64,000 nucleotides of DNA from a virus (Duplodnaviria > Caudoviricetes): the IMG/VR virus record IMGVR_UViG_3300025383_000009. One strand, written 5' to 3'. Of this stretch, positions 50,458 through 51,436 are shown piece after piece. How positions within the stretch are numbered: the first letter of the stretch is position 1; every line of letters begins with the position of its first letter. The translations under genes and the position numbers were made by a program. The notes beneath the pieces were generated by a model. It was not told the DNA's origin. It did no database searches and was given only the letters and a program-made list of their open reading frames with translations.

Positions 50458-50687
50458 TGAAAAAATTTGATATTAAATGGATAGCATTAACAATATTCAT
50501 CATAGCAGGAACATCAGTAGCATTAAAAATGCCATGGTTGAAATGGTCTTTTCCTGGTTTTGTTATTGCTCATGGAATATTAGTGTATGACTTTGCAAGA
50601 ACACACAAGAATCTTCCTTTATTATTACAGAATTCTTATTTCTTTATAGTAAACATAATAGCAACATATATTTGGTTTTTTAAATGA
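50457..50687 (+). CDS. Small membrane protein
   Basis: Three short hydrophobic segments. Confidence 0.6.
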   Translation: MKKFDIKWIALTIFIIAGTSVALKMPWLKWSFPGFVIAHGILVYDFARTHKNLPLLLQNSYFFIVNIIATYIWFFK

Positions 50688-51436
50688 AAAAAAAACATTA
50701 CAAAAGCATATTCATTTCTGATATACATTTAGGTACAAAAGATTGTAAAGCCGAATATGTTAATAACTTCCTAAAACACCACACATGCGATAACCTATAT
50801 CTTATAGGTGATATTATTGATGCATGGAAGATACAACAGAATAAATGGAGATGGAAACAAAGCCATTCTAATGTTGTTCGTAGAATATTAGGTCATGCTA
50901 AAAGAGGAACAAAGGTTACATACATAACAGGAAATCATGATGAGTTTTTACGACCAATGATTCCATACGGTCTAAACTTTGGTGTAATTGATATAGTAAA
51001 TCAAGCAGAACACATTGGTATTGACGGTAAACACTATTTGGTTATACATGGTGATATGTTTGATGGTATTACAAGACTAGCACCTTGGATTTGTTTTCTT
51101 GGTGATAAAGCCTATGATTTTGTATTAGACCTTAATAATAAATTCAATTGGTTTAGACATAAATTAGGATTTGGTTATTGGTCTTTGAGTCAGTATTTAA
51201 AACATAAAGTTAAGAAATCAATGGACTTTATGTTTCATTTTGAAGATAACTTAGCACAGTATTGCAAGAAAAGAGGATTTGATGGCGTTATTTGTGGTCA
51301 TATTCATAAACCAGAAATTAAAAGAGTTAATGATATGGTATACATGAACGATGGTGATTGGGTCGAGAGCTGTTCAGCACTTGTTGAACATTTAGATGGT
51401 AAATGGGAAATAGTTTTTTGGCAAAAGGAAATTTAA
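50684..51436 (+). CDS. PlcP/LpxH-like metallophosphoesterase
   Basis: FISDIHLG, LIGDIID.W, GNHDEFLR, IHGD.FD, GD.AYD, YWSLS, GVICGHIH, NDGDWVESC.ALVEH.DG. Confidence 0.85.
   Translation: MKKKHYKSIFISDIHLGTKDCKAEYVNNFLKHHTCDNLYLIGDIIDAWKIQQNKWRWKQSHSNVVRRILGHAKRGTKVTYITGNHDEFLRPMIPYGLNFGVIDIVNQAEHIGIDGKHYLVIHGDMFDGITRLAPWICFLGDKAYDFVLDLNNKFNWFRHKLGFGYWSLSQYLKHKVKKSMDFMFHFEDNLAQYCKKRGFDGVICGHIHKPEIKRVNDMVYMNDGDWVESCSALVEHLDGKWEIVFWQKEI

Follow-up and report, generated by a model that had tools for sequence, protein, structure and literature searches.

Genes between nrdA and nrdB

The DNA analysed here, called the window below, is a stretch of 64,000 nucleotides from a virus of the Caudoviricetes (IMG/VR record IMGVR_UViG_3300025383_000009), which is a low-GC T4-like phage. 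Between nrdA and nrdB, the genes for the large and small subunits of its ribonucleotide reductase (RNR), the listing of open reading frames (ORFs) shows an intact metallophosphoesterase gene of 250 amino acids (aa), on the plus strand at positions 50684-51436. We assign its product to the PlcP family, in the LpxH-like branch of the calcineurin-type metallophosphoesterases, an assignment that survived every test, and we regard the gene as a viral member of a known enzyme family. An earlier note on this DNA had described it as a PlcP-like phospholipase C inserted between nrdA and nrdB, and the insertion is borne out by the flanking ORFs, which match the Pfam families Ribonuc_red_lgC and Ribonuc_red_sm. 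The GC content of the plcP gene (32%) is in line with that of the neighbouring phage genes. The features of the region are as follows.

48551-50368, plus strand: nrdA, RNR large subunit, 605 aa, at the head of the coupled chain (Pfam Ribonuc_red_lgC, 8.9e-108; Ribonuc_red_lgN, 4.7e-13)
50368-50457, plus strand: putative hydrophobic ORF of 29 aa, coupled to nrdA through TAATG (direct reading of the sequence only)
50457-50687, plus strand: ORF of 76 aa with three hydrophobic stretches (the ORF listing extends its start to 50442, giving 81 aa)
50684-51436, plus strand: predicted PlcP-family metallophosphoesterase of the phospholipase C type, 250 aa, without a C-terminal tail (Pfam Metallophos, 2e-10, residues 9-210)
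51436-52419, plus strand: nrdB, RNR small subunit (Pfam Ribonuc_red_sm, 2.4e-76; alternative start at 51403, giving 338 aa)
52429-52617, plus strand: ORF of 62 aa with a CxxC...CxxC pattern, following nrdB (tblastn 58-92%, directly 3' of nrdB in at least 12 loci)
52608-53048, plus strand: SegE-like GIY-YIG homing endonuclease gene bordering the RNR cluster (Pfam SegE_GIY-YIG, 2.1e-39; position kept in relatives)

The first five of these ORFs are chained together, each stop codon overlapping the next start. The TAA that ends nrdA (50366-50368) overlaps the ATG of the 29-aa ORF, whose own TAA overlaps the ATG of the 76-aa ORF; the TGA of the latter overlaps the start of the plcP gene (ATGA at 50684), and the TAA of plcP overlaps with an ATG at 51436 that is in frame with nrdB (TAATG). 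Because of this last overlap, 51436 is more likely to be the nrdB start than 51403. A terminator scan gave no match from the end of nrdA to the start of nrdB, all four matches being located within nrdA (49988), within nrdB (51728) or beyond nrdB, and promoter-like matches were not above chance. As the stop/start overlaps link five ORFs and no terminator-like site intervenes, co-expression of PlcP with the RNR genes, which the earlier note had proposed, appears well supported.

The 76-aa ORF probably encodes a membrane protein. A copy 74% identical is present in a related contig (L004), and no match was found in Pfam or PHROG. In the ESM atlas it lies near viral clusters, one of which carries the automatic name 'PnuC family' (score 0.90); this is a lead only, and the ORF may encode a short PnuC/SemiSWEET-like transporter. 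On the other side of the chain, the 62-aa ORF gave only sub-threshold matches in Pfam. The order of this ORF and the SegE-like endonuclease gene is kept 3' of nrdB in at least 12 related contigs. Elsewhere in the window, one ORF labelled RNase H is 24-80% identical to same-position ORFs in relatives and another is labelled primase, both labels having been given without a check against a family library.

Family membership: PlcP or LpxH

The five metallophosphoesterase motifs are complete in the protein (SD13-I-H15-LG, GD43, G83-N-H-D86, H122-GD and G205-H-I-H208), and three further motifs are present, GDKAYD (residues 140-145), YWSLS (165-169) and GDWVESCSALVEHLDG (224-239), which are absent from true LpxH. 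The motif set on which the earlier note had relied, with its GD.AYD, YWSLS and GDWVESC-type elements, was therefore recovered in full. In an alignment of 30 sequences, comprising viral and bacterial relatives, all these motifs are invariant or nearly invariant columns, and the metal ligands D13, H15, D43, N84, H122, H206 and H208 are invariant. The residues specific to the PlcP family are present as well (GNHD, CGHIH, F126-D127, GD141, YWSLS, K173, Y220-x-N222, GDWVESC and E235). A search of PHROGs returned only generic 'metallo-phosphoesterase / DNA repair exonuclease' matches, to the N-terminal 90 residues.

Two bacterial PlcP proteins served as anchors, taken from records of the plasmid collection PLSDB (L149, CP090106.1, and L150, NZ_CP042268.1). 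The window protein shares 52.9% identity with the orthologue of Pseudomonas aeruginosa PA3219 (E 2e-95) and 40.8% with that of Sinorhizobium meliloti SMc00171 (E 1e-75); between the two anchors, the identity is 46.6%. In the S. meliloti record, of 3.72 Mb, the single match adjoins genes for a LuxR-type regulator and an acyl-homoserine lactone synthase, which we take to be sinR and sinI (SMc00170/SMc00168), placing the match at SMc00171. In the P. aeruginosa record, the genes after the match are one for a family-1 glycosyltransferase and cyaB, in this order, which corresponds to PA3219-PA3218-PA3217 if, as we assume, PA3217 is cyaB. Some of the PLSDB 'plasmid' records look chromosomal, namely the 3.72-Mb S. 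meliloti record, labelled pSymB, and P. aeruginosa 'plasmids' with cyaB-agt1-plcP. In the lipid-renovation pathway of P. aeruginosa, PA3219 has been identified as the PlcP and PA3218 as Agt1, the latter confirmed by expression (PMC8528852). The identity between PA3219 and the S. meliloti PlcP is quoted at 46% (PMC8528852), and since our value of 46.6% matches this figure, we consider the anchor identities confirmed. In a phylogenetic tree, both anchors were placed within bacterial PlcP clades. For comparison with the E values above, a BLASTP E value below 1e-40 is the PlcP criterion used in PMC4796936.

The competing assignment is a true LpxH, that is, a UDP-2,3-diacylglucosamine diphosphatase which would boost or alter lipid A synthesis of the host. 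This label is carried by the deposited annotations of the homologues in the phages Mosig and S-SRM01, by many JGI names and by tables of auxiliary metabolic genes (AMGs) based on KEGG. The window protein reached 56.1 bits on the LpxH model NF003743 (cut-off 134) and 45.3 bits on TIGR01854 (cut-off 190), less than half of both curated cut-offs. By contrast, seven true LpxH proteins found in the bacterial genomes sampled reached 260-346 bits on the two models, and 284-346 bits on NF003743. Two strong-match bacterial orthologues linked to a glycosyltransferase of family 4 (GT4), together with a jumbo-phage copy, behaved like the window protein (47-57 bits). The matches from a search of 401 Pseudomonadota genomes formed two classes, and none was intermediate: full-length matches of 36-59% identity (E < 1e-47) occurred in about 120 genomes, and a second class had 22-27% identity (E 1e-10 to 1e-6). 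This weak class corresponds to true LpxH, as seven of the weak matches are the proteins that score 260-346 bits on the LpxH models; one genome (G011) carries a match of each type.

The phylogeny against PlcP and LpxH proposed in the earlier note gave the same answer. The window protein groups with PlcP, and the longest branch of the tree, with 100% support, splits LpxH from the PlcP and viral sequences (support values here and below are from the Shimodaira-Hasegawa-like approximate likelihood ratio test, SH-aLRT, of a quick tree). At the residue level, the window protein has GNHD and CGHIH where LpxH has GNRD and HGHTH, the R and the H being invariant at those columns in 11 LpxH sequences. A true LpxH was thus rejected on four grounds: scores below both cut-offs, a separate clade, 22-27% identity to LpxH as against 41-53% to the two characterised PlcP orthologues, and absence of the LpxH-invariant residues. 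We consider this identity refuted as far as sequence evidence reaches, and its probability as negligible. The conclusion of the earlier note, PlcP and not LpxH, is upheld by model scores, tree, family residues, anchors and gene neighbourhood alike. Also, the viral PlcP is consistently mislabelled as LpxH in databases.

A confident AlphaFold2 model computed from the 30-sequence alignment (predicted local distance difference test score, pLDDT, 84.9; predicted template modelling score, pTM, 0.82) predicts a calcineurin-like sandwich with a helical insertion, or cap, at residues 123-197. When the model was compared with the PDB by Foldseek, the best 24 listed matches were all LpxH (E 3e-11 to 5e-9; template modelling score, TM, 0.53-0.57), followed by small subunits of DNA polymerases and Mre11. 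LpxH (PDB 5k8k, 5b49 and 6ph9 among others) has in common with the window protein the calcineurin-like core, a helical cap over the active site and the ligands of two metals; it differs from it by the low identity, the GNHD and CGHIH residues, the clade and the gene neighbourhood. LpxH is the lipid-binding member of this fold, in which the acyl chains are held beneath the helical cap.

The gene neighbourhoods of bacterial orthologues also point to lipid metabolism. A GT4 gene comes next on the same strand in 12 of 20 loci, an OlsF-like acyltransferase gene adjoins the orthologue in three (in two of these as the next gene on its strand), and in one the next gene encodes a DUF3419 protein, presumably of the BtaA family. 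Such GT4, OlsF and BtaA-type neighbourhoods match the plcP contexts described in PMC4796936, according to which about one third of bacterial plcP genes stand alone, and a plcP-agt-dagK operon has been described (PMC13691135). Linkage to a gene for a glycosyltransferase or for phosphorus-free lipids is therefore typical of the PlcP family, without being obligatory. Four natural fusions (P0188, P0194, P0259 and P0270; 564-663 aa) join an N-terminal GT4 domain to a C-terminal PlcP-like domain 40-43% identical to the window protein, and as Rosetta-stone evidence they support a partnership of PlcP and Agt.

These data also bear on a different reading of the protein, as an LpxH-like pyrophosphatase whose substrate would be no lipid but a compound linked to a nucleotide, either a nucleotide sugar or a dinucleotide, and which would shape the nucleotide pools within the RNR operon. 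The position of the gene between nrdA and nrdB would suit such a role, the enzyme with the nearest solved fold, LpxH, cleaves a pyrophosphate linked to UDP, and weak matches to YfcE-type phosphodiesterases were obtained. We nevertheless judge it improbable, because every PlcP-specific residue is present and the arginine of the LpxH GNRD motif is absent, because the partners of bacterial orthologues and viral copies, by linkage or by fusion, are lipid glycosyltransferases and not nucleotide enzymes, because the predicted cap matches that of the lipid-binding member of the fold, and because most viral loci are not near RNR genes.

Viral relatives and the plcP-glycosyltransferase cassette

A pattern-limited scan of IMG/VR showed that at least 439 contigs encode relatives of the window PlcP. 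The best 80 of them are 75-100% identical to it and are all intact ORFs, of 249-300 aa. In the protein database, at least 120 clusters (at the 90% identity level) were found, the top 120 being all 75-100% identical. The gene immediately downstream was recorded in the 80 IMG/VR loci and in the window; 77 of these loci (76 from IMG/VR and the window) had enough downstream sequence.

41 loci: gene for a GT4 of 335 aa directly downstream of plcP; its full-length identity is 39% with P. aeruginosa Agt1, and its identity with other GT4 proteins linked to PlcP is 39-43%
28 loci: gene for a family 2 glycosyltransferase (GT2) of 238 aa directly downstream, with weak similarity to GT21
8 loci: nrdB directly downstream, without a glycosyltransferase (the window, L004, L010, L012, L016, L017, L033 and L035)
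4 loci: downstream sequence lacking, the contig ending

A glycosyltransferase gene is thus directly 3' of plcP in 69 of the 77 loci, about 90%. Also, in 20 loci a DesA-family fatty acid desaturase gene is found within 3.5 kb, about 2 kb downstream. Examples of these cassette genes are at L026:8743-9750, L034:8910-9626 and L070:10249-10953. Since 90% of the viral loci pair PlcP with a glycosyltransferase, as the bacterial plcP-agt operon does, the ancestral viral function looks like full lipid renovation, from phospholipid to glycolipid, and not like simple stripping. Intermediate arrangements exist: nrdA-PlcP-GT2-nrdB in L038, PlcP-GT2-nrdB in L043, whose contig starts at PlcP, and PlcP-GT4-nrdB in L039 and L071. 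For this reason, the solo PlcP of the window's lineage most likely arose by loss of the transferase.

In bacteria, PlcP is an intracellular phospholipase C of the lipid remodelling that accompanies phosphate starvation. Compared with its known members (SMc00171 of S. meliloti, MED193_17359 of Phaeobacter, that of SAR11 HTCC7211, PA3219 of P. aeruginosa and BCAL2364 of B. cenocepacia), the window protein has the same fold, length, metal ligands and family-invariant residues, it is as close to the two anchors as these are to each other, and most of its viral relatives share the GT4 Agt-like operon partner. It differs in being encoded by a virus, inside an RNR operon, without an adjacent glycosyltransferase gene and without a C-terminal tail; matches to a Pho box were no more frequent than expected by chance.

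The viral gene is under selection and was not acquired recently. The proportion of nonsynonymous differences (pN) was 0.14-0.18, against saturated synonymous differences (pS) of 0.70-0.92, which corresponds to a nonsynonymous to synonymous rate ratio (dN/dS) of about 0.07 at most and indicates strong purifying selection on viral PlcP. A recent transfer from host to phage was rejected, given the saturation at synonymous sites and a highest bacterial identity of 59% among the genomes sampled. The viral PlcP clade is monophyletic (95% support) and stands beside the sampled bacterial clades, not within them. A scan of genome contigs gave a single match, on a contig of 2,662 bp (L003, CAIRZE010000028.1) in a metagenome-assembled genome of the Competibacteraceae; its PlcP nests inside the viral clade, and the contig is probably viral DNA that was misbinned.

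The gene has also moved between phages. One relative (G001, 359,563 bp) is a phage 100% complete by CheckV. Of the 79 window ORFs that reach 100 aa it shares only 20, most of them at an identity of 21-35% (21% for nrdA and 25% for the ORF labelled RNase H). Despite these few and distant shared genes, the two PlcP proteins are 78% identical, which argues that the plcP cassette has moved between unrelated phages. A cellular origin of most of the top protein matches, suggested by their position on contigs of 336-384 kb, was considered and rejected, since at least one of them is a complete 360-kb phage by CheckV. Near the plcP gene of G001 (L151-L168) we observed a gene for Fe/Mn superoxide dismutase, a 5'-nucleotidase-like gene and a LysM-chitinase-like gene, and other loci have AhpC and CMD genes near plcP.

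The gene is no one-off: besides unrelated phage lineages, two cultured phages carry it. The homologue of Pelagibacter phage Mosig is 49% identical to the window protein (E 7e-75) and is a separate and more bacterial-like copy; its gene (L001:4894-5841) is transcribed divergently from an adjoining PstS-like gene (PBP_like_2, 1.6e-44). The host of Mosig, HTCC1062, can be cultured; it presumably lacks plcP, and the phage may bring it a missing PlcP capability. Synechococcus phage S-SRM01 has a very divergent copy, 35% identical.

Side observations on the cargo around viral plcP concern nucleases. In a T4-like relative, a gene of the Endonuclease_NS family (3.2e-55; L013:9946-10692), with an N-terminus that by eye resembles a signal peptide, lies two genes downstream of the PlcP-GT2 pair, and SNase-like genes are near plcP in 14 other loci. 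These genes may be further phosphorus-scavenging cargo.

Possible role in phage replication

Taken as a whole, the data are in our view best explained by a cytoplasmic, membrane-associated phospholipase C of the PlcP type that frees lipid phosphorus during replication, and we hold this explanation to be probable. By eye, the N-terminus has no signal peptide or membrane-spanning stretch and the first catalytic motif begins at residue 12; the protein is therefore probably cytoplasmic. Its two-metal centre, held by D13, H15, D43, N84, H122, H206 and H208, would hydrolyse the glycerol-phosphate ester of host glycerophospholipids (phosphatidylethanolamine, phosphatidylglycerol or phosphatidylcholine), whose acyl chains would lie under the helical cap at residues 123-197, and the products would be diacylglycerol and a soluble phosphorylated head group. 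As part of the chain nrdA - 29-aa ORF - 76-aa ORF - plcP - nrdB, the enzyme would be made while deoxynucleotides are being built, and cleavage of host phospholipids to diacylglycerol in the replication phase is the most likely activity. The benefit would be a supply of lipid-bound phosphorus to the cell pool amid heavy DNA synthesis, independent of the host's control of phosphate starvation. The data show membership of the PlcP family, an intact catalytic site, strong purifying selection, coupling to the RNR genes and the pairing with glycosyltransferases in relatives, whereas we infer which lipids are cleaved, what becomes of the head group and how the phage gains. That the released phosphorus feeds the synthesis of deoxynucleoside triphosphates (dNTPs), as the earlier note suggested, is plausible.

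In small bacteria, the share of cell phosphorus held in membrane phospholipids is comparable to that in the chromosome, so this pool would be worth tapping. Phage production is often limited by phosphorus, since at least as much of it goes into a burst of large genomes as into the host chromosome. The answers known from phages are genes for uptake, pstS and phoA among them. A phage PlcP would be a different answer, in which the host membrane serves as the phosphorus store. Phosphate-stress AMGs of marine phages include pstS, phoH and phoA in cyanophages and pelagiphages, and lipid desaturases are known from cyanophages. With them the viral plcP has in common that it is a host-derived metabolic gene in lytic phages that plausibly eases phosphorus limitation of DNA synthesis, that the Mosig homologue adjoins pstS, and that relatives have a DesA-family desaturase gene nearby; it differs in that PlcP would act on the cell's own membrane phosphorus and not on uptake.

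The same enzyme might be used for another purpose, a change of the envelope, either for superinfection exclusion or for preparing the membrane for lysis. Lipid remodelling or aminolipid content has been reported to alter phage attachment and membrane protein content (PMC9938194; PMC9804370), the glycosyltransferase and desaturase in the cassette of relatives would alter membrane composition beyond the release of phosphorus, and in the window a small putative membrane ORF is translationally coupled just upstream. Against such a purpose, PlcP is coupled to nrdA and nrdB, which belong to the replication phase, and not to lysis or late genes; the homologue of a cultured phage adjoins pstS, a classical phosphate-stress gene; and bacterial PlcP is not lytic. 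We regard an envelope function as unlikely, although less so than a nucleotide-linked substrate.

Several observations weigh against a phosphorus-releasing PlcP tied to RNR. The window protein lacks the C-terminal tail of 15-46 aa found in bacterial and jumbo-phage copies, and its fold matches are to LpxH only, at a TM of about 0.55, no solved PlcP structure being known. No GT4, GT2 or desaturase homologue was found in the 64 kb of the window, where nrdB directly follows plcP, and no GT4 or GT2 in five related contigs, which are only 4-36% complete. A search with the proteobacterial Pho box consensus gave six matches in the window against 7.4 expected, none of them near plcP; phage early promoters may replace Pho control. 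To set phosphate free from the head group, a phosphatase would be required in addition, and none was identified. Also, most viral plcP copies are not near RNR genes, and the interval between nrdA and nrdB is a variable cargo slot in relatives: it holds IscU (NifU_N), IscA (Fe-S_biosyn) and carbamoyltransferase genes, a gene for an oxygenase dependent on 2-oxoglutarate and Fe(II), a thioredoxin-like ORF (by sequence), a BPL_N-like ORF and a gene for a Bax1-I membrane protein (L010:6638-7998, L035:3239-6240, L038:3652-4785 and L039:586-1278). Because of this variability, a functional tie to RNR follows less readily from the position of plcP than the earlier note assumed. With a SegE-like endonuclease gene one small ORF beyond nrdB, the RNR link may be an accident of insertion.

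In most relatives, plcP heads a plcP-agt cassette, often with DesA nearby, which would turn the diacylglycerol into a phosphorus-free glycolipid and so complete the renovation; the window's lineage kept PlcP alone. In a broader and more tentative reading, several unrelated large aquatic phage lineages would share a mobile plcP-agt(-desA) cassette that turns the host membrane to glycolipid and frees phosphorus for virus DNA, the window phage having a stripped-down form, limited to the phosphorus-releasing step and tied to dNTP synthesis. We would place this proposal slightly below an even chance. If it is true, part of the phosphorus-free lipid signal in phosphate-poor waters is virus-driven, and the virome entries 'lpxH / LPS biosynthesis' (lipopolysaccharide biosynthesis) really represent the lipid-renovation pathway.

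The earlier note was not aware of plcP as a well-described AMG, and our literature searches fit this view. We found no publication that combines plcP with AMGs or describes a phage-borne plcP, in a search that left out subscription journals, so that a prior description is possible; nothing relevant came from a wider search on phages together with phospholipids, glycolipids and phosphorus. A phage-borne plcP-agt cassette thus appears to be undescribed. Virome surveys, one of which covers viral transcripts of Lake Baikal, list only 'lpxH' under lipopolysaccharide synthesis, a consequence of the mislabelling in databases.

The window also has a second gene for a lipid-active enzyme. A class 3 lipase gene is located at 17484-18311 on the minus strand (Pfam Lipase_3, 7.6e-27).

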